Below are positions 5,161 to 33,668 of a stretch of 41,516 nucleotides of DNA, one piece after another. Both the position numbers and the translations under genes were made by a program. Below the pieces are notes generated by a model. It saw only the letters and a program-made list of their open reading frames with translations, had not been told where the DNA came from and did no database searches. The stretch comes from Candidatus Binatia bacterium (GTDB lineage Bacteria; Desulfobacterota; Binatia; Bin18): NCBI GenBank assembly GCA_041487975.1, contig JBGPOI010000001.1, positions 1 through 41,516 of the forward strand, written 5' to 3'. Each line of letters opens with the position of its first letter. Within the stretch, counting starts at the first letter, position 1.

Positions 5161-6477
5161 ATGTCGGTGACCATGGACAAGATCGTCAACCTGTGCAAAC
5201 GGCGCGGGTTTGTTTTCCCCTCGAGCGAGATCTACGGCGGCTTTGCCAGCACTTGGGACTACGGTCCGCTCGGCATCGAACTCAAACGAAACATCCGCGA
5301 GACCTGGTGGCGCTACATGGTGACGGCACGCGAGAACGTCGTCGGCATCGAGAGTGCCGTGCTCATGCATCCGCGGGTGTGGGAGGCTTCAGGTCATATC
5401 GCTGGATTTTCTGATCCCTTGGTGGACTGCCGCGTTTGCAAACGGCGCTTTCGCGCTGACCAGATCCCTGCCAAGGAAGAACGGCAATGCCCCAAAGGCA
5501 TGGAGTGCGATCTGACCGAGGCCAGGCAGTTCAACCTGATGTTCAAAACCTTCGTTGGTCCAGTTGAGGAAGACGCAGCCGTAGCATTCCTCCGCCCCGA
5601 GACTGCGCAAGGTATGTTTGTGAACTTCCTCAACGTCCAGCAGTCCGGCCGCCTCAAACCGCCTTTCGGCATCGCGCAGATCGGCAAATCGTTTCGCAAC
5701 GAGATCACACCCGGCAACTTCATTTTCCGCACGCGCGAGTTCGAGCAGATGGAAATGGAGTTCTTCGTCAAACCCGGCACTGACGAGGAGTGGTTCGATT
5801 ATTGGCGCGAGCAGCGTATGAATTGGTACACCACACGGCTCGGTATCAAGCCTGCCAACCTCCGCTTTCATCACTACGAGAAGCCCGATCTTGCCCACTA
5901 CGCCAAGGCCTGCTCGGATATCGAATACCAGTATCCCTTCGGCTGGGGCGAACTCGAAGGCATTGCCAATCGTACTGACTTCGACCTGCGGCAGCATGCC
6001 GAGCACAGCGGCAAGGATCTGACTTTCTTCGATGAAGAGACGCGCGAACGTTATCTGCCGTATGTCATCGAGCCGGCAGTGGGGGTGGACCGCCTCCTGC
6101 TCATCATACTCCTCGATGCCTACGAGGAAGATGTACAGGAGAATGAGTCTCGCGTCGTCTTGCGCTTGCCTCCGCGTCTTGCTCCGATTAAAGTTGGGAT
6201 CTTTCCGCTCCTACGGAAAGACGGGCAGCCGGAGAAAGCTCTAGCGATCCGTGATCTCCTCAAGCAGCGATTCGCCGTTTTTTACGATCAGGCGGGTTCG
6301 ATCGGCCGGCGCTACCGCCGCCAGGACGAGGTCGGCACGCCGTTCGGCATCACCGTGGATCATCAAACTATGCAGGACGATACCGTGACCCTGCGCGACC
6401 GCGATTCTCTCCAACAGATCCGTTTACCGATCGACCGGCTGATTCCTGAGTTAATCAGTCGGATAGAACCGTTCTAG
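5161..6477 (+). CDS. glyQS: Glycine--tRNA ligase, dimeric class II (GlyQS type)
   Basis: N-terminus KIVNLCKRRGFVFPSSEIYGGFASTWDYGPLG and class II motif 2 (FRNEITPGNFIFRTREFEQMEMEFF). The 438-aa length fits the GlyQS type. Confidence 0.97.
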   Translation: MSVTMDKIVNLCKRRGFVFPSSEIYGGFASTWDYGPLGIELKRNIRETWWRYMVTARENVVGIESAVLMHPRVWEASGHIAGFSDPLVDCRVCKRRFRADQIPAKEERQCPKGMECDLTEARQFNLMFKTFVGPVEEDAAVAFLRPETAQGMFVNFLNVQQSGRLKPPFGIAQIGKSFRNEITPGNFIFRTREFEQMEMEFFVKPGTDEEWFDYWREQRMNWYTTRLGIKPANLRFHHYEKPDLAHYAKACSDIEYQYPFGWGELEGIANRTDFDLRQHAEHSGKDLTFFDEETRERYLPYVIEPAVGVDRLLLIILLDAYEEDVQENESRVVLRLPPRLAPIKVGIFPLLRKDGQPEKALAIRDLLKQRFAVFYDQAGSIGRRYRRQDEVGTPFGITVDHQTMQDDTVTLRDRDSLQQIRLPIDRLIPELISRIEPF

Positions 6478-7760
6478 AAGCTCCAGCGAAGCTCGGTATA
6501 AGCGGTAGAGTTGTCGTGTAGATTCTCAAAAAAGGACGGGCGCGGTCCACGGAAAATGTCGGCTCCGGCTACTATCTTCCATCGGTCAGTTAACGCATAG
6601 GTGACCTTGGGACGTAACGCGTAGCCACCGCGAGTGAATGCAAAAACCCCGACCACCTCTCCTTCAAGTGTCTCGTTCAACCATCTGTCACTGAGCCGGA
6701 GCGAGGCTCCATGCTGGGCTCGGTCCAACTGATTCGTTTGCACAGCCTGCTGGATCGCCACCCCCTGCTGCAGAGGATCCTGAAATCGGAAAGGACTCTG
6801 ATAATGGACCACCAGCCGGAAAATGTACTGAATATTAACATTCAGGTACTCAAAGAAAGTCCGGTCGCCGCCTAGGACCATGAAGAAGAACGGGTTCTTC
6901 ACAGCGGGATTGCCACCCCCGGTGTCTGTCGTGAAAGTGTAAGCAGCCTCTCCACGCAACCCGTAGCGGCCGAATGTGGTTGCAGTGTCGGCTCCGATCA
7001 CCCGGATACGATGGTTGCGCAGATGTAGGTCTACCCCGGCAGCGCCGATCCGGTCGATCCCCAGATCTGGAAAGGGATCAAAGCCGTCAAAGTATGAGGC
7101 AGACCAGTCAATCATACTCCCCGTTTGCTCAAGCTTGGCTGCCCACTGCTGCAAGGCTCTCTCCGGCGCTTGTTCATGCAGGGTGAACAGTGCAGGGGGC
7201 TGCTTGATCGGAATAGTGTCAGACTCGAAGGCAGGCAGCCACACGCCGGTCAGTGAGAGTCCTCCCAAGTAGTAGGTCGCCTTGACGGCTACCGTGCCCA
7301 GCCGCTGGTCGTCGTCCTCAGGAAAGAGCAAAGTAAAGTTTTTTGCCGTAAGATTGTCGGTTGGGTTAATCCGATCGGCCCGGCCCCAGACAATAAGCTG
7401 CTTGCCGACGCACAGGTCCACCGGCCCGAGGCTCACATCCAGATAGGCTTCCCGGAGTTCTCCGTTGGTCTCCCGCTCCCGAAAGAGTTCCTGGTTCATG
7501 ACCCACCCTTCGACGAAGAGCGTGGTTGTAGACCCGAGTCTTGACGTGGCCTTGAGCCAAAGAGAGGCGACAGCCCTGTGCTCGCGGTTGTCGAGGTCTC
7601 TGGAGGAACTCCAGTATCCTTCACGGAGAGACCCAGTCAGTTCTGTTCGCTGGGTCGCGTTTGCGAGCGAATCAATGAAATCGGGAAGCCCTGTGGCAAA
7701 AAGAGGTGTCGTCCCGAGCAGAATGGTCCAGGCACACACTCCCAGGGCAACGACCTTCAA
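6474..7760 (-). CDS. Outer-membrane beta-barrel protein, DUF1302/alginate-export-like
   Basis: Signal peptide (MKVVALGVCAWTILLGTTPLFATG), alternating beta-strand pattern, and a C-terminal aromatic residue (ELRWSF). The REAYLDV...GKQLIVWGRADRINPTDN motif is one I associate with DUF1302/alginate-export barrels. The TTG start overlaps the stop of the upstream transporter (TTGA, 7757-7760). Confidence 0.7.
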   Translation of the reverse strand: MKVVALGVCAWTILLGTTPLFATGLPDFIDSLANATQRTELTGSLREGYWSSSRDLDNREHRAVASLWLKATSRLGSTTTLFVEGWVMNQELFRERETNGELREAYLDVSLGPVDLCVGKQLIVWGRADRINPTDNLTAKNFTLLFPEDDDQRLGTVAVKATYYLGGLSLTGVWLPAFESDTIPIKQPPALFTLHEQAPERALQQWAAKLEQTGSMIDWSASYFDGFDPFPDLGIDRIGAAGVDLHLRNHRIRVIGADTATTFGRYGLRGEAAYTFTTDTGGGNPAVKNPFFFMVLGGDRTFFEYLNVNIQYIFRLVVHYQSPFRFQDPLQQGVAIQQAVQTNQLDRAQHGASLRLSDRWLNETLEGEVVGVFAFTRGGYALRPKVTYALTDRWKIVAGADIFRGPRPSFFENLHDNSTAYTELRWSF

Positions 7761-10700
7761 GGCTCTCGCTCCATGTAACGAGCTGTGAAGAACTCGTCTG
7801 GAATCTGTTGATTGACTTTGAAGTTCTCGAACTGGATGATGGTCCGGTGTCCCGTCTGGCTATTGGTAGCCTCCAAGCGCATCGGGCGCCATCTTCCCCT
7901 GTCAGGGTCAACAAGCTGGACATCCTCCCCTTTGCAGCTCTTGAGGGGCTGGCCAGCACGGTCCCAGAACTCTTCCTTGATTGTGACGAAGTTGTCCTTA
8001 CGGATCCAGGCGTTGTGCTTCGAGTAGCCGCTACTCGCCTTCACCGACTCATCTCGCGGGACGGACTCGATCACGTAGCACGGCTGACCATCCACCTCCT
8101 CTTCTCTCAGCAGAATATGCTGCCAGTCCTCGACCTTGTGGCCAATCACATCTCCATATGAGAAGTCCGTGCCAGCGAAGCTGTCTTTTTTGTTCGTGGC
8201 AACCAGCCGGCGGACTTTCTTGAGCGCCGGCAAATAGACCCAAATGTCATCGTCTTGGTCCGTATGCTCGATCGTGAGGATGGCTGTTCCTTTGACGTCG
8301 GGCGGAGAAAGGAACCGCACCATCTGCGTGTTATCCATGCCATTAGATTGGAGCTTTGAGACCGTCAGGGTCTTTCTCACCCGCTCCTGACCTGCCGTGT
8401 TGATTAAGGTGAAGGTGACGTCCGCAATGGAATCCAGGACCCGTGTGACGGCGAAGTTCTTCTCCATGATTTCCCTAGCCGTCGATGGATCTCCCCACGC
8501 TTCACCAGTTTGGCAAAGACCAAGCCCCAGGACGAAGAGGAAGGCCGTAGTGATTTCAGGAACGGTCGTGAGGCGTTGGCTGGCTGCTCCGAAAACGAAA
8601 CGAGGTCGCAGGGTGAGGATCAAGCTGGGCAGGATCGTCAGCGCCCCCAGGGAACTCACCAGCATGGCTGTTGCGATCAAGATCGCGAACCACATGTGAA
8701 TGTAGTACCCGTAGGAGAAGAGCAGCACCCCGTAGCCACCGGCTACCGCCGAGGCGACGAAGAGGATTGCCTTGCCGGCCGTGGTGAGGGCAGTATGGCA
8801 TGCCGTTCGTTCGTCCACGCCACGGCCTAGTTCTTCCCGAAGGCGATAGATGAGGTAGATGGCGTAGTCAGCTCCGATCCCCACCGCCATAGCGGAGATC
8901 AGAGAAGTCCCGATGTTCAACTGAATCCCAAGCAACCCCATGAGACCAAAATTGGCGAGCACGGCCAGTAGCAAGGGGACGAGCACGAGTAATCCCGCCA
9001 GAAGGGAGCGGAAAACCACCGAGGTAATGAACAGAATCACTCCACTGATTTGGATGATGTTGAGGATCTTCCCGTGAACCATCACTTCGTTGAGGGCGGC
9101 TGTTTGTGCCACGCTCCCGCCAATTCTGATCCGCATGTCATCACCGAACTGGGTCGGGAGAAAATCATCCAGCCTGGCGATCAACTCCTGGAGGAAAGTG
9201 CTGCTGTCGGTCTTAAGGAAGACCCAGATGTTAGCGGACTGGTAGGTGTAGTCCACATAGGAGTCAAAGTCCCCTGGCTCTCCAGAGAGGGAGTAGAGGA
9301 GCAGGTACTGGGAGATCAATTCCTGGCTCTCTGGTATCCGATCGTAGGATGGGTCATCGTTATGCATCGCCTGGTTCATCCGCTTGATGAAGTCTACCAG
9401 GGACAGGGTCTTCCCAACGTGAGCTTGTCGATTGAGGAACTGTTGGGTTGCTTCCATCGCCCGGAGGACCTGGGGGTCCTTAATCGCATCTCCCCGGGGT
9501 CCTTCGACCAGCAGGTACAGTGTATTAGTCCCACCGAGATGCTCGTTGAGTAGTCGGTCATCCTGCTGGAAGGAAAGGTGCTGAAAGAAGTAGCTCTTCA
9601 CGGAATTGTCCATTCTGACTCGCGTCAGCCCACTGCCCCAGAGCAAGAGTAAGCAGGCGACTCCCGCGTAAAGACGCCACCGGCTGGGGCCGGTCACCCA
9701 GCCGGCAATCGTCTCGGTGATCCGATCCCACACGCGCCGCTCGCGCTCGCGGCGGCTTTCTCTCTGTCCCGGCGCGGGGAGCAGAGACCGGAGCGCCGGA
9801 ATAAAAGTTATTTCTAAAATGAGGGCGCTCAGAATCCCCAGTCCAGTGAAAATACCGAACGTGCGAATGGTCGTGACCTCAAAGACGACCAGGGAAAGAA
9901 AGCCGAGTGCGGCGACGCTACCGGCTGTGAGCATCACCGGTCCGATCCGCGTCACCGACTCTACCACTGCAGCCCGGTTGGCCTCGGTTGGGGTGAGGGA
10001 TGTAGTCTCTCTGAGCCGATGGTATTCCTCGTAATAACGCTTGAGGATCTGTACCGCGTGGCCGGCCGCCACTGCGAGGATCAGGATCGGGGTCGTCCCG
10101 TTGAAAACATCCATGGGAACACCAGCGAGGCGCATGATCCCTAGCCCCCAGACGACCGCCAAGAGCGCGGTGACTAACGGGAGAATCAGCCCTTGGATCG
10201 TGCGGAAGGCTTCATAGTGGATCAGCCCCATGATCAGAACAGCGAGGACGAAGAGGATCGCCATCCGCTGGGAATATGCTTCGACCCGATCGAGGAAGAT
10301 CGGCAGACCGCCAAGAGCGATGTCTACGGAGGCATCACGTTCCCGCTCCACGAGGGGGCGGACCTTCTCCACCATACCCTGAAAGCCGCCCGCATCCTCT
10401 CTGAACTCGGCGAGGATGGCTGCCGTACGCTCATCTTTGGAGATAATCGTATTCACGTAGGCAGGGTTCGCGCGGACAGCCTGTCGCAGCGACTCGATCT
10501 CTGCCACTGTCTGCGGGACAGTCTCCATCAACGGCCGTACCTCGATACCGTCTGCCGTTCCCACGATGTTTTTGGCGCGCCGGGCGGCAAGGCTGAGGAT
10601 GTTCCCTTTCACCACGCCAGGAGTGTCGAGAATAGCTGTAGTCAGGCGCTGAATTTTGCTCAACACCGGCACACTGAAGGCATCGCCCTCCTTGGGGGTG

Positions 10701-10909
10701 ATGCCGATGATGATGACATACTTCGACCCGAATACCCGCTCGACCCAGTTTGTCGCTACGACATACGGGTGCTCTTGGGGGAGCATGGTGTTGGGGTCGA
10801 TAATGACCCGGAGGTGGGTGATTTGAAAGGCTAACACTCCCGTAATGAGTCCCGTGAGTCCAATGAGGAAGAACCTGTAGCGGAGAATTCCCTCTACGTA
10901 GCGCCTCAT
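7757..10909 (-). CDS. MMPL/RND-superfamily (lipid) transporter fused to an extra TM helix and a C-terminal periplasmic LolA-like domain
   Basis: 1050 aa. Shows a 2 x (1 TM + large loop + 5 TM) MMPL topology with GIGADYAIYL-type motifs. After TM12 comes another hydrophobic helix (EITTAFLFVLGLGLCQTGEAW). A 245-aa domain follows, with the DSFAGTDFSYGDV motif typical of the LolA_like 'outer membrane lipoprotein-sorting protein' family. Confidence 0.85.
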   Translation of the reverse strand: MRRYVEGILRYRFFLIGLTGLITGVLAFQITHLRVIIDPNTMLPQEHPYVVATNWVERVFGSKYVIIIGITPKEGDAFSVPVLSKIQRLTTAILDTPGVVKGNILSLAARRAKNIVGTADGIEVRPLMETVPQTVAEIESLRQAVRANPAYVNTIISKDERTAAILAEFREDAGGFQGMVEKVRPLVERERDASVDIALGGLPIFLDRVEAYSQRMAILFVLAVLIMGLIHYEAFRTIQGLILPLVTALLAVVWGLGIMRLAGVPMDVFNGTTPILILAVAAGHAVQILKRYYEEYHRLRETTSLTPTEANRAAVVESVTRIGPVMLTAGSVAALGFLSLVVFEVTTIRTFGIFTGLGILSALILEITFIPALRSLLPAPGQRESRRERERRVWDRITETIAGWVTGPSRWRLYAGVACLLLLWGSGLTRVRMDNSVKSYFFQHLSFQQDDRLLNEHLGGTNTLYLLVEGPRGDAIKDPQVLRAMEATQQFLNRQAHVGKTLSLVDFIKRMNQAMHNDDPSYDRIPESQELISQYLLLYSLSGEPGDFDSYVDYTYQSANIWVFLKTDSSTFLQELIARLDDFLPTQFGDDMRIRIGGSVAQTAALNEVMVHGKILNIIQISGVILFITSVVFRSLLAGLLVLVPLLLAVLANFGLMGLLGIQLNIGTSLISAMAVGIGADYAIYLIYRLREELGRGVDERTACHTALTTAGKAILFVASAVAGGYGVLLFSYGYYIHMWFAILIATAMLVSSLGALTILPSLILTLRPRFVFGAASQRLTTVPEITTAFLFVLGLGLCQTGEAWGDPSTAREIMEKNFAVTRVLDSIADVTFTLINTAGQERVRKTLTVSKLQSNGMDNTQMVRFLSPPDVKGTAILTIEHTDQDDDIWVYLPALKKVRRLVATNKKDSFAGTDFSYGDVIGHKVEDWQHILLREEEVDGQPCYVIESVPRDESVKASSGYSKHNAWIRKDNFVTIKEEFWDRAGQPLKSCKGEDVQLVDPDRGRWRPMRLEATNSQTGHRTIIQFENFKVNQQIPDEFFTARYMEREP

Positions 10910-11064: not shown

Positions 11065-12198
11065 TCAACGGGGCTTCACCACTTGGGGGATGGTAACGGC
11101 CAGGCGTTCGGCCAACATGTGCGAGAGGTTCAGCAGTACCTTTGCAGCAACGGTAGGCTCCTGGGCAATGACTCGATTGAGGAATTCGCCCGAAAGCACG
11201 ATCATCTCGCACGGCGCTTTAGCCACCACATTGGCAGTACGTGGCTTCGCCGTAAAGAAGCTGATCTCGCCGAAGGTATCACCAGCGCCCAGGACCGCCA
11301 GGGGATGGTCGGGTACTTCGGCCAGCACCACTTCCGCAATGCCCGACAGGAGCACAAACACCGCGTTGCCCTGCTCACCCTGCCTCACAATATGATCGCC
11401 CGGCTCCGCCTTGATGAGAGTGGCCTTCGCGAGAAACCGTTCGGCTTCCACGCGGTCGAGACCGTATAACAGCCGCAAACCGTGCAACGGGTCGGTCGCA
11501 ACACGATCGCACAGCATGTCGAAGAACACCCCTTCTGGAAGGAAGGATGCCGTCTCGAAGGCCAGATACTCAGGGTAGGCGCGCTCAAACCATGCCCGTA
11601 CCTCTGGGTCATCGGGATAGCGCGTCGCAACCCGCAGCAGAGGTGACCGGACTCGCTCGAACCGTTGCCGGTCCCGCACGAGCATCAGAATCAAGATCTT
11701 GAAGCCATAGGTAGTGTCATTGTACGCCTGTCTGTAGCGCCGGTAGCCCATATGCTCGTAGAACGGGAGCAGATGCGGGCTGCAATCGCCGTAATTTAGC
11801 CGGACACCACGAGCCATCGCCTCCTCGTATGCAGTCTCCATCAACCGAAGGATCGCCGTGCCGTGACGAAGCCGAGGATGGAGGATGAACCGGCTCGTCG
11901 TGCCAATGGCGGAGCGACCCAGCGCCTCGATCGCCAGCTCCAGCCCGAACTTTTCGACAAGGGGCGTGGGATCGGGCACATCGTCGAGGACTGTGGTCCG
12001 CAGAGACCCCACCACCTCTCCCTCATCGAGGAGAGCATGGGAGACGCTTACGTCATCGAGCGGGTCCCAGAGCCGCTTGCGCGTGTGGTCTGCCTCAGGC
12101 GGCGAAAGCCCTAATTCTTCAACGTAGGCACGATAACGGAAAGCGAAGATTTTCTCCCGCTCCCCTTCCGAACGCCCTGGTGCAACGGTCAATCCCAT
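11065..12198 (-). CDS. GNAT-fold N-acyltransferase (LuxI/FeeM/OlsB-like N-acyl amino acid synthase family) fused to a C-terminal cyclic-nucleotide-binding domain
   Basis: The N-terminal half (EREKIFAFRYRAYVEELGL...WDPLDDVSVSHALLDEGEVVGSLRTT...PFYEHMGYRRY) resembles N-acyl amino acid synthase/autoinducer-synthase-like GNATs. The C-terminal half is a canonical cNMP-binding beta-barrel (GDHIVRQGEQGNAVFVLLSG...GDTFGEISFFTAKPRTANVVA), with the FGE and R-T-A phosphate-binding cassette. Confidence 0.75.
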   Translation of the reverse strand: MGLTVAPGRSEGEREKIFAFRYRAYVEELGLSPPEADHTRKRLWDPLDDVSVSHALLDEGEVVGSLRTTVLDDVPDPTPLVEKFGLELAIEALGRSAIGTTSRFILHPRLRHGTAILRLMETAYEEAMARGVRLNYGDCSPHLLPFYEHMGYRRYRQAYNDTTYGFKILILMLVRDRQRFERVRSPLLRVATRYPDDPEVRAWFERAYPEYLAFETASFLPEGVFFDMLCDRVATDPLHGLRLLYGLDRVEAERFLAKATLIKAEPGDHIVRQGEQGNAVFVLLSGIAEVVLAEVPDHPLAVLGAGDTFGEISFFTAKPRTANVVAKAPCEMIVLSGEFLNRVIAQEPTVAAKVLLNLSHMLAERLAVTIPQVVKPR

Positions 12199-12848
12199 CG
12201 TTGTTGTTCCTCGCCGATTTCCCGGAACATCCGCGTGTATAGGTCGGCCACCACGTCGGCCACGTGGGAGACCGCCATGCAGTCCTCGTCTCGCCGGACA
12301 TACTTCTGGATGCAGTGTGTCATATCCTTCGTGTGATCCACGTCGCTGTCGCCGTGGCGCGCTACGAAGCGCACCCCCTTCCCCGAGAGTCCCGTTACTG
12401 TTTTAAGCTGCTTGGCGACGAGCGCCCCAAGGTCACTGCCCACTACCTCAAGCACATACATCCACCCGAACAGCCCTACAGGGTTCGCGTATCCCGCGAC
12501 GTAGTGCATATAGCCGATCATGGCCTCACACGCCGGAACCGGACGCGCTGCTCGGACCTGCGCCTCGCTCACGTTCAGGTCGCGTAAGTCCTCAAGTGCC
12601 CAAAGGTCATGTCCATGCTCCTCGTCGGCGTGGTGCAGGAGATAGGTCGCGAGTTCCGGGTGTGTGCCCATGCACCGTGCCGCGGCCAGGGCCATGACCT
12701 TTGGGCTGTGCTGCGCATAGTTATAAGCATTGATGAGGTATCGGACATATGCGCTCGGCTCAACGGTCCCGGCAAAGAGAGCTTTGGTGATTTTGGTATC
12801 AGTCAGCTCTGTGATGACCCGCTTACGAACTTCGAGCAGATGTTCCAT
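12189..12848 (-). CDS. Heme-oxygenase-like diiron oxidase / iron-containing redox enzyme family protein (CADD/PqqC/TenA-like fold)
   Basis: The ORF track gives 12189..13040. I prefer ATG 12848 (MEHLLEV), preceded by GGGGAGGAG. The product is a 219-aa all-helical protein. Candidate metal ligands are E65-x6-H72, E134 and H165-x3-D169-x2-H172. Its stop overlaps the downstream acyltransferase start by 10 nt (ATGGGATTGA). Confidence 0.7.
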   Translation of the reverse strand: MEHLLEVRKRVITELTDTKITKALFAGTVEPSAYVRYLINAYNYAQHSPKVMALAAARCMGTHPELATYLLHHADEEHGHDLWALEDLRDLNVSEAQVRAARPVPACEAMIGYMHYVAGYANPVGLFGWMYVLEVVGSDLGALVAKQLKTVTGLSGKGVRFVARHGDSDVDHTKDMTHCIQKYVRRDEDCMAVSHVADVVADLYTRMFREIGEEQQRWD

Positions 12849-13148
12849 GTTTACTCCTCCCCAGATGATGCCGATAGTGAACGCGATGGGAAATCTTCGG
12901 AAAAGCGACAGCAATATACTAAATACTAACGAACGCCGCGATGTGCCATATGCAAATGGAAGAGGGTCGGCAGATGTCTGAGAGCAAGCTGGCTGTTTTT
13001 CGGCCTCGTGCAGGGGGCTTCGCAAATCCAGTCCGTTCATTTATGAATGGGTCGCGAGGCAGCGGGTTTTTTCCTCTGACGTACTTCTGCTACCCTGACT
13101 GCAATATTGGGGAGAATTTTTGAGAAGGAGATATTCAGCACGAGACCT

Positions 13149-31706: not shown

Positions 31707-33668
31707 TCAGCCTTCATCATTCCCCATATGTTCCCTCACGCGTGTGCGGAACTGTCCTAAAGCCATCAGCGGGAAATAGTTCCGGTACCCGTAGTAGCGC
31801 AGGTAAAAATGGCGAGGAAATCCTGTTCCGGTAAACAGCTCCTCAGGCCATGAGCCGACGGTTTCCTGCCGCGCTAGTAAATAAGCGATCCCCCGGAGGA
31901 CCACTGGGCTGATCTCATCTTCCGCGGCGAGCAGCCCGAGCACAGCCCAGGCGGTCTGGGATGGAGTACTCTCTCCTTTCCCTGCTTTGCTCTGATCCCA
32001 ATATGACAGGCAGTCTTCCCCCCAGCCACCGTCTGGGTTTTGCCGTTCTTTGAGCCAGGCCACGGCACGTTGAACGTAAGGACGATCCATATCCTCACCG
32101 ATCGCGCGCAGCCCAACCAAAACCGACCACGTACCATAAATGTAATTGACCCCCCAGCGTCCCCACCAGGAGCCGTCTTGCTCTTGTATCTCGCGCAGAA
32201 AATCAAGCGCTCTACGGGCTCGACGGAAGTCTCGGTCATACCCGAACGTTCCCATCATCTCGAGCAGCCGGCCAGTCAAATCAGCAGTCGGCGGATCAAT
32301 CATCGCCTTCATGTCGCCAAACGGCATCTGGTTCCACACGTCCAGAGTATTGTCAGTATCAAATGCCCCCCAGCCACCGTTACGACTCTGCATACCCAGG
32401 GTCCAATTCAGTCCGCGGGCAATTGCCTGGTCCTTCTTGCGCTCATCCACACTTGTCACGCGCTTGAGGGTGAAAAGGATCACCGCAGAGTCATCTACAT
32501 CCGGGTACCAATCATTAGCGAACTCGAAAGCCCATCCCCCGGGTTCCAATTCGGGGTTCTTAATTTGCCAGTCGCCAGTTTTGAAAATTTGGTTGTCGAT
32601 GATCCAGTTCGCCGCTTTGGTGACCACAGGGTGGTCGGTGGGAAAACTCGAGTCGAGCAGAGCCTTGATCGCCCATATCGTATCCCACAGCGGGGAGACG
32701 CACGGCTGGAAGAACAGGTGTCCACCAGTTTCCATGAGAAAATCTTCGATCGCCTGGATACCTTTTGCGACTGCGGGATGGTCATGCGGATAGCCAAGAC
32801 TACGCAGCGCCATCACCGAGTTGAGCATCGCCGGCTGAATGCCACCCCACCCACCGTTGACGTCTTGGTGGTCCACCACCCACCGTTCGGCTTTGCTCAA
32901 CGCCCGCTTCCGCAAAGGTTTCACTGGGCTTCTCGCCAAAAACTTCAGCAACTTGTCCACGACGATAAAGAAGTTTCCCCAGGAAACGAGTTGGGAAGAA
33001 TAGGGAAAGCTCAGGTCAGATTGTTCAGGCGGATCTTTCCAGAGTTCGGTCACGCCGCAAGAGGCAGGGATAGCAATGGAAGGCCGGTGGGCCAGTATAA
33101 TACTGAGCGGCACCACTGTGCCTCGAGCCCAACTGGACATTTCGTAAATATTAAGAGGGAACCACGCTGGTAGGAGCACAACCTCAACCGGGAGGGCGGG
33201 AACCCCATGCCAGGGAAACTGGCCAAAGTACGCAAGGAATATGCGGGTGAAGACCTGGGCTTTAGCTAGCCCGCCTTGGACTAAAATAAATTCCCGAGCC
33301 TTGACCAAGGCGGGATGATCGGCAGAGTAGCCGGTCAATTTAAGCGCAAAGTAGGCTTCAATAGTAATGCCGAGATGACCCGGCCCCTTGTCGAACAGCG
33401 ACCAGGCACCATCGTCCGCCTGGACCGCCAACAAGTGCTCACAGATACGCTTGTGCTTCTTCTCATCCACCAGGCCCATGAAGTGATTGAAAAAGATGTA
33501 CTCGGCGTCCATGGTGGCGTTCGCCTCGAGGGGATAGTACCAGTAGCCCTCAGGCTTTTGCTCACGACGGAAATACTCCTGAGCCCGCAGGATGGTGCTA
33601 TCCAGGCTGCGGAGAAGTTCGTCATCCCCAGCAGTTATTTTGGCAGGGAACCCCTCTTGTTGTGACAC
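31707..33668 (-). CDS. shc: Squalene-hopene cyclase
   Basis: Catalytic DxDD motif (WYPDVDDSAV) and multiple QW repeats (e.g. MQSRNGGWGAFD, IQEQDGSWWGRWG, RQNPDGGWGE). 653 aa with a GTG start preceded by GGAG. Confidence 0.97.
   Translation of the reverse strand: MSQQEGFPAKITAGDDELLRSLDSTILRAQEYFRREQKPEGYWYYPLEANATMDAEYIFFNHFMGLVDEKKHKRICEHLLAVQADDGAWSLFDKGPGHLGITIEAYFALKLTGYSADHPALVKAREFILVQGGLAKAQVFTRIFLAYFGQFPWHGVPALPVEVVLLPAWFPLNIYEMSSWARGTVVPLSIILAHRPSIAIPASCGVTELWKDPPEQSDLSFPYSSQLVSWGNFFIVVDKLLKFLARSPVKPLRKRALSKAERWVVDHQDVNGGWGGIQPAMLNSVMALRSLGYPHDHPAVAKGIQAIEDFLMETGGHLFFQPCVSPLWDTIWAIKALLDSSFPTDHPVVTKAANWIIDNQIFKTGDWQIKNPELEPGGWAFEFANDWYPDVDDSAVILFTLKRVTSVDERKKDQAIARGLNWTLGMQSRNGGWGAFDTDNTLDVWNQMPFGDMKAMIDPPTADLTGRLLEMMGTFGYDRDFRRARRALDFLREIQEQDGSWWGRWGVNYIYGTWSVLVGLRAIGEDMDRPYVQRAVAWLKERQNPDGGWGEDCLSYWDQSKAGKGESTPSQTAWAVLGLLAAEDEISPVVLRGIAYLLARQETVGSWPEELFTGTGFPRHFYLRYYGYRNYFPLMALGQFRTRVREHMGNDEG

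Follow-up and report, generated by a model that had tools for sequence, protein, structure and literature searches.

A frequent, reversible fusion of an RND pump to a LolA-like carrier, joined by a putative former signal peptide, in Candidatus Binatia and relatives of the locus

We analyzed a stretch of 41,516 nucleotides from a Candidatus Binatia bacterium (GenBank assembly GCA_041487975.1, contig JBGPOI010000001.1, positions 1 to 41,516 of the forward strand), which in its full length we call the window. On its minus strand, a single open frame of 1,050 amino acids plus stop, beginning with ATG, encodes an MMPL-type transporter of the RND superfamily and, in the same polypeptide, a LolA-like domain. 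An earlier reading of the sequence alone (the sequence-only reading) had placed a hydrophobic segment, E785-W805, at nucleotides 8495-8557 and the LolA-like domain, G806-P1050, at nucleotides 7760-8494, and those coordinates are exact. The fused open reading frame (ORF), its parts, and the gene that follows it are arranged as listed here.

7757..10909, minus strand: whole fused ORF, an RND/MMPL pump, a predicted internal signal peptide and a LolA-like domain (ORF list, Pfam, homologous clusters, AlphaFold)
8606..10909, minus strand: RND/MMPL (HAE3-like) pump, residues 1-768 (Pfam PF03176, TIGR00921 below its cut-off, Foldseek)
8555..8605, minus strand: cytoplasmic loop after transmembrane helix 12 (TM12), the n-region of the predicted internal signal peptide, residues 769-785, P-R-F-V-F-G-A-A-S-Q-R-L-T-T-V-P-E (column conservation)
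8513..8554, minus strand: hydrophobic h-region, or "TM13", I786-C799, 14 residues (hydropathy peak)
8492..8512, minus strand: c-region, Q800-T-G-E-A804-W-G806, with a predicted type I signal peptidase site before D807 (column composition in 95 fused proteins)
7760..8491, minus strand: LolA-like (PF17131 / TP_0789-like) predicted periplasmic carrier domain, residues 807-1050 (Pfam, PDB sequence matches, Foldseek)
6474..7760, minus strand: gene for a DUF1302-like predicted outer-membrane beta-barrel, 428 amino acids (ORF, sequence, Pfam)

Both halves of the fused protein belong to known families. The Pfam MMPL model (PF03176) matched in two stretches that correspond to the two halves of the pump, with 165.1 bits against a cut-off of 20.5, and the LolA_like model (PF17131) matched residues 860-1048 across model positions 3-184 of 184 (E 1.2e-61; 208 bits against a cut-off of 30). 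TIGR00921, the HAE3 model, was the top NCBIfam model for the pump, yet its 242.3 bits lie below the threshold of 351.9. Hydropathy and an AlphaFold model built on a multiple sequence alignment of 95 homologues indicated 12 TM helices, at residues 12-30, 216-235, 238-261, 273-302, 307-342 and 346-374 in the first half and 410-428, 599-633, 636-660, 666-694, 700-731 and 736-767 (TM7 to TM12) in the second. Periplasmic domains fall between TM1 and TM2 (about 32-215) and between TM7 and TM8 (431-598), which is the standard RND plan. Columns H284/Q287 in TM4 and D681-Y682 in TM10 are invariant among the pump homologues and are candidate proton-relay residues. A 13th hydrophobic stretch, I786-C799, comes after a basic loop (R768-P-R770-F...R779).

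The AlphaFold model of the whole chain had a mean predicted local distance difference test (pLDDT) score of 82.6 and a predicted template modeling score (pTM) of 0.72. Residues 776-809 were the sole stretch below 50 pLDDT and were modeled as coil with no helix, and residues 812-1046 were folded confidently into a beta-rich domain with strands across 826-1032. By Foldseek, the pump half matched MmpL4, MmpL5 and MmpL3 at TMt values of 0.75-0.81, and the carrier domain matched Porphyromonas gingivalis LolA3 (PDB 9tp6) at TMt 0.88, with a root mean square deviation of 2.4 and 34% identity. Strands and match together give the domain the open beta-barrel of the LolA type. The same structure led the PDB sequence matches for the carrier (8.6e-37), which also included 3bk5, 4z48 and 3buu. 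Pfam, hydropathy and AlphaFold therefore agree with the sequence-only reading that an MMPL transporter carries a 13th hydrophobic segment and a LolA-like domain.

That reading had also taken the protein for a fossil of two fused genes, and its relatives support the idea. Stand-alone homologues of the carrier (57-71% identity), found on long contigs, lie directly after an MMPL gene and before a DUF1302-like gene. In these split relatives the MMPL protein has 776-782 amino acids and the LolA-like protein 263-271, such that 780 and 271 sum to 1051. The pump stop codon abuts or overlaps the carrier start (ATGA or an 11-nucleotide overlap), and the carrier has its own ATG, a Shine-Dalgarno sequence (SD; GGAG) that lies inside the last codons of the pump, and an ordinary N-terminal signal peptide. 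Moreover, the N termini of stand-alone carriers (for example, MKHNPLPMS.VVLALVFGLSMQP.N.WA and then AE) align residue for residue with the linkers of fused proteins (...FRRIAVKHNPLPMSVVVLALVFGLSTQPQNSWA and then AD). By this alignment, the hydrophobic segment is homologous to the Sec signal peptide of the former partner, as had been proposed.

How often the two states have interchanged was read from DNA junctions at 80 species-representative loci from named genomes, which together with the window make 81. Sixty of the 81 junctions are continuous, including those of two cultured Ramlibacter isolates, and 21 are split. Of the 21 split rows, L039 owes its state to Ns in the sequence, and indel errors may account for a few others. 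In all 80 sampled loci the pump lies directly upstream of the carrier, and in 73 of them a barrel gene lies downstream, its start usually overlapping the carrier stop by 4 nucleotides. A maximum-likelihood tree built on the mature carrier domain requires at least 12 changes between fused and split states, at least 9 of them forced by well-supported branches; within Nitrotoga, for example, MKT and CP45 are fused and HW29 is split. Several split clades of three to four species and large all-fused clades are solid in this tree. At the junctions read, the frame offset between pump and carrier falls no more than a few bases from the SD and start codon, which means that a small indel could turn either state into the other. 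The tree also bears on taxon labels: seven environmental metagenome-assembled genomes (MAGs; L015, L047, L055, L057, L066, L068 and L090) are titled "Enterobacteriaceae," "Bordetella parapertussis" or "Bifidobacterium," and their carrier domains group with Rokuibacteriota or environmental Burkholderiales, so these labels look unreliable.

The fusion is real and common. In a search of proteins of 577-1837 amino acids, clustered at 90% identity and scored on residues 760-1050, at least 682 clusters shared the continuous junction, nearly all of them 1044-1054 amino acids long with both PF03176 and PF17131. They come from Rokuibacteriota, Gallionellaceae, Nitrotoga, Zixibacteria, Burkholderiales and other taxa and are annotated as "outer membrane lipoprotein-sorting protein" at NCBI or [quoted passage not shown] at JGI. 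An exhaustive search with the carrier domain alone, across 1.84 billion representatives of clusters at 50% identity, gave 5453 matching clusters. Among the best 150 of these 5453, about 12 were full-length fusions, some at only 37-39% identity, and most others were stand-alone proteins of about 265 amino acids. The fused architecture has, moreover, been in print since 2018 as TOL_3187 of Thalassolituus (Gregson et al. 2018, PMC6304351). We conclude that fusion is a frequent, reversible state of a widespread cassette and was known before, and the view of it as unusual does not hold. What is specific to the window is only that the internal start has been lost in its clade.

Whether the junction still acts as a signal peptide was approached through column composition over the 95 fused proteins. 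The window junction has the makings of an internal Sec signal peptide: basic residues R768, R770 and R779, the h-region I786-C799, and small residues at -3 and -1 in A804-W-G806. The column at -1 (G806) holds A in 60, G in 25 and S in 6 of the proteins, so that A, G or S occupies 91 of 95; the column at -3 (A804) holds A, T, G or V in 81, and that at -6 holds Pro in 60. Adjoining columns have entropies of 3.0-3.7 bits. Columns of the h-region are nearly unconstrained (2.2-3.3 bits each) with hydrophobicity kept, and the loop after TM12 has P769 and F771 in every protein and R768 in 90 of the 95. By composition, the -1/-3/-6 pattern reads as the classical pattern of type I signal peptidase. The sequence-only reading had marked a cleavage between W805 and G806; the signal peptide stood, and the position, with Trp at -1, did not, as the aligned site lies between G806 and D807 with G806 at -1 and A804 at -3. 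Only column conservation carries weight here, because in a rule-based -3/-1 scan 74-85 of 95 control segments (TM1, TM3, TM7 and TM9) also scored, and the scan was dropped as evidence.

Fused junctions also resemble the true signal peptides of split carriers. All 60 fused junctions have a -3/-1 site, Ala at -1 occurs in 56 of the 60 versus 20 of 21 split signal peptides, and the hydrophobic core averages 16.2 residues in fused versus 14.3 in split proteins. Judged by core length and Ala at -1, the two appear indistinguishable. The distance from hydrophobic core to first conserved helix has a median of 12 residues in fused versus 9 in split forms.

In the clade of the window (Rokuibacteriota, Manganitrophaceae and L015) the carrier has no usable in-frame start. 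We found no in-frame ATG, GTG or TTG in the residue 769-785 loop of the window or of most of its clade, and the window and five relatives (L016, L017 and L019-L021) have no in-frame start anywhere in the junction region. L015 and L018 have just a GTG inside the h-region, lacking an SD, and Met occurs in the n-region in only 6 of the 40 closest protein clusters. Thus, in this clade the carrier domain is obtainable solely from the precursor. A small-x-small site nonetheless persists there, as A-W-G, T-W-A, A-S-G, A-L-G, A-R-A, A-A-A or G-W-G. By contrast, 42 of the 60 fused junctions, mostly from Pseudomonadota, keep an in-frame ATG or GTG with GGAG 5-12 nucleotides upstream, which might allow separate translation of the carrier as well in these organisms. 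The retained starts (L022-L036 and L042-L093) lie about 26-31 codons before the predicted cleavage site, and conserved F-R-R or N-G codons supply part of their GGAG.

The gene after the fused ORF completes the cassette. It starts with TTG inside a TTGA that overlaps the pump stop codon, is translationally coupled, and encodes a protein with a signal peptide that ends in ...RWSF. The DUF1302 model (PF06980) matched with 31.4 bits against a cut-off of 23.2 and covered only model positions 133-191 of 541; 24 of 25 homologues of the protein match DUF1302, weakly, and a profile search against PDB sequences gave no match. The product is probably an outer-membrane beta-barrel.

From these parts we propose a three-part envelope transport module for very hydrophobic cargo. 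It would comprise a proton-driven inner-membrane pump of the MMPL/HAE3-type RND family, a periplasmic PF17131 carrier of the LolA fold, and a DUF1302-like outer-membrane barrel. Pump and carrier would once have had separate genes, which merged through loss of the pump stop codon and a frame change at a tightly abutting or overlapping junction. With the end of TM12 in the cytoplasm and Sec export of all stand-alone homologues, the hydrophobic segment must cross N-in/C-out, and this topology together with homology supports a periplasmic location for the LolA-like domain. The carrier's former signal peptide, the 14-residue segment, would thus re-insert in that orientation and take the carrier across the membrane. 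Type I signal peptidase would most likely cut after G806 (A-W-G before D); the products would be a free carrier of about 244 residues, able to take cargo from the pump across to the barrel, and a pump that keeps a short 13th helix. The fusion would be a polyprotein precursor that fixes synthesis at 1:1, not a new tethered machine. We lean toward cleavage of the fused precursor into pump and free carrier, given the conserved junction pattern. For "hardened" fusions, in which the carrier start and ribosome-binding site are gone, we put at about even the chance of an obligate bacterial polyprotein, cut by signal peptidase I into a 13-helix RND pump and a free LolA-like carrier at 1:1, in lineages that toggle with the two-gene state through small indels.

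One alternative is an artefact, in which a sequencing or assembly indel of 1-2 nucleotides joined two genes in this MAG. The fused and split states are indeed interconvertible by a small indel, and the source genome is a MAG of 669 contigs. The window junction, however, lacks the fossil start codon and SD expected from an artefactual join of a split locus, and its nearest relatives (78-68% identity; L015 and L016-L021) share the continuous junction with differing sequences. With the same length in 682 clusters and the same continuous junction in 60 of 81 loci, an artefact is hardly credible.

A more serious alternative is that the segment is a permanent 13th TM helix, as the sequence-only reading had it, and that the LolA-like domain stays covalently tethered at the outer face of the inner membrane, where it would dock and act in hand-off or as a lid instead of shuttling. 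In favor of this reading, the open frame runs on without a break and is conserved, and the startless clade of the window can make the domain only in attached form. With 11-22 residues, the hydrophobic core overlaps real TM helices in length (TM1 16.0 and TM7 17.3, against 15.1 for TM13), and in some fused homologues its 20-22 residues are long enough for a stable anchor. The pTM of the whole chain would also fit a defined arrangement of domains. Other points also weigh against cleavage, the case for which draws on a sequence pattern and an evolutionary argument. Under a permissive -3/-1 rule, TM1 and TM7 are likewise followed by sites in 78-79 of the 95 proteins; retention of the motif could partly be inheritance from recent split ancestors instead of selection in the fused state; and some of the toggles in MAGs could be indel sequencing errors. 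A mere anchor, however, leaves the conserved Pro at -6 and small residues at -3 and -1 unexplained. The fused linker has not lengthened and, at about 12 residues, falls far short of the distance to the outer membrane and the barrel there. Moreover, the states interchange at least 9-12 times with linker length and domain sequence unchanged, which would be unlikely if they worked differently; frequent switching without other change instead suggests that the two states are functionally equivalent. Finally, AlphaFold did not model the segment as a helix. AlphaFold usually leaves signal peptides at low confidence and non-helical. We therefore regard a permanent tether as doubtful and less likely than cleavage; the periplasmic placement made by the sequence-only reading is kept, and its lasting membrane anchor is what the conserved c-region, the switching, the linker and the modeled coil call into question. 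LolA3, the solved homologue, was produced in soluble form with its signal peptide left off (PMC13103446).

What the module carries was also considered. The sequence-only reading had suggested hopanoids, noting a squalene-hopene cyclase gene (shc) about 21 kb from the pump, and the gene is indeed in the window: a match to the C-terminal domain of the cyclase (498 bits) lies at 31746-32699 on the minus strand in a 657-amino-acid open frame. The pump is, moreover, of the same RND superfamily as the hopanoid transporter HpnN, so a hopanoid exporter functionally linked to shc could be imagined. The pump nevertheless falls far short of both HpnN models, at 77.8 against 751.85 bits for TIGR03480 and 26.6 against 1100 bits for NF052374, and its fold matches HpnN (0.62) less well than MmpL3/4/5. 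The same genome encodes two full-length HpnN-like RND ORFs, at C45:10815-13511 (plus strand) and C4:17837-20521 (minus strand), which score 604 and 589 bits against TIGR03480 (cut-off, 752) and are better candidates for a hopanoid transporter. In a small sample of five other genomes that carry the module, four, including a 6.1-Mb Ramlibacter isolate, gave no SQHop_cyclase_C match, and the fifth gave one of 30 bits. Finally, the 21 kb between shc and the pump are filled with unrelated genes. We consider hopanoid export very unlikely.

A second and more tempting genomic clue to cargo would suggest an N-acyl amino acid lipid. Upstream of the pump, at 11065-13040 on the minus strand, lie a gene for a FeeM-type N-acyl amino acid synthase with a C-terminal cNMP-binding domain (377 amino acids) and, upstream of it, a gene for a haem-oxygenase-like or iron redox enzyme (283-amino-acid ORF); the two overlap by 10 nucleotides, and the pair lies 155 nucleotides upstream of the pump gene. 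By tblastn, the FeeM-type neighbor was matched in only 1 of the 80 loci (L079) and the haem-oxygenase-like neighbor in none of the 80. FeeM also occurs within 5 kb of the module on three further contigs (L008, L011 and L012), where the arrangement differs and ThiF and PEP-CTERM genes accompany it. As linkage to FeeM is not conserved, it is insufficient to assign a cargo. Experimental hints concern hydrophobic hydrocarbons only, and by analogy: TOL_3187 is induced 42-fold on the alkane n-C28, and the porin-like gene just downstream is expressed on n-C28 only (PMC6304351), and the AmeABCD cassette provides tolerance of monoterpenes (PMC6394551; bioRxiv 10.1101/072470).

Among known systems, the closest in kind is the cassette of an HAE3 pump, a LolA-superfamily protein and a DUF1302 barrel. 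TOL_3187 of Thalassolituus oleivorans MIL-1 and its downstream porin-like gene have, by their description, the same fused architecture and gene order; the paper reads the protein as exporting the porin and discusses neither an internal signal peptide nor cleavage (PMC6304351). AmeABCD of Castellaniella defragrans and the co-fit DUF1302/DUF1329/BNR/RND cassettes likewise combine an HAE3-type RND pump, a LolA-superfamily periplasmic protein and a DUF1302 outer-membrane protein as one unit, and the deletion phenotype of AmeABCD concerns tolerance of hydrophobic compounds (PMC6394551; bioRxiv 10.1101/072470). The window locus differs from AmeABCD in the carrier, which is a DUF1329 protein of about 450 amino acids in AmeABCD and a PF17131 domain of about 245 in the window, and in gene order, which is barrel-carrier-BNR-pump in AmeABCD and pump-carrier-barrel, with pump and carrier fused, in the window. 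Moreover, AmeABCD has a fourth, BNR/Ycf48-like protein, and the seven loci for which there are Pfam tables (L008-L014) show none. Elsewhere in the genome of the window, six frames of 412-461 amino acids on contigs C274, C321, C350, C33 (two copies) and C437 (L002-L007) are weakly carrier-like, with 29-35% identity to the carrier domain over about 60-75 residues. In size they correspond to DUF1329-type LolA-like proteins, and the genome may hold AmeB-like cassettes too.

The individual parts also have relatives with other partners. Among solved structures, LolA3 (PGN0947; PDB 9tp6) comes closest to the carrier domain. It loses its signal peptide by cleavage and is soluble in the periplasm, stands alone, with no pump fusion and no LolB binding, and lacks the LolA Arg and LolB Leu signatures (PMC13103446). 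Canonical LolA partners with LolCDE and LolB and has a conserved Arg in its beta2-beta3 loop, whereas the genomic partner of the window carrier is an RND pump. The top structural matches to the pump half, the mycobacterial lipid and siderophore exporters MmpL3, MmpL4 and MmpL5, are monomer-type RND proteins with 12 TM helices and two periplasmic domains. They share 15-16% identity with the window pump, their C-terminal extensions are cytoplasmic, and their partners are MmpS and AcpM, with neither a LolA-like fusion nor a barrel partner. HpnN of Burkholderia multivorans (PDB 5khn) belongs to the same RND superfamily and to its HAE3-like branch, and works without a carrier or barrel partner (PMC6394551); as said above, the window pump is far from its curated models.

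For the putative cut itself, there is a precedent of mechanism only. In Bradyrhizobium japonicum, the cytochrome b-c1 precursor FbcH was reportedly found (Thony-Meyer et al., about 1991) to have an internal signal peptide after the last helix of its first protein, which signal peptidase cuts to give two mature proteins; these are unrelated to the pump and carrier described here. A literature search for bacterial polyproteins with an internal signal peptide found only viral cases, and, to our knowledge, natural polyproteins of polytopic membrane proteins processed by signal peptidase are rare in bacteria.

Why the fusion matters follows from the reach of the pump-carrier-barrel cassette, which is very widespread, the carrier domain alone finding the thousands of clusters given above. 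Fused forms offer a simple handle on its mechanism. If the carrier is released, the pathway would be a soluble shuttle of the Lol type, and a lasting tether would confine hand-off to the pump. The clade of the window is the cleanest natural test of precursor cutting, because its carrier is made from the fused precursor only. Should cleavage prove true, it would supply a useful example of a polyprotein and leave the picture of RND transport unchanged.

The cassette sits close to housekeeping genes. At 6474-6477 the barrel gene (minus strand) converges with glyQS (plus strand), the two stop codons overlapping by four bases with zero intergenic space. Farther out, recO accompanies glyQS on that side, and PPDK lies on the other.

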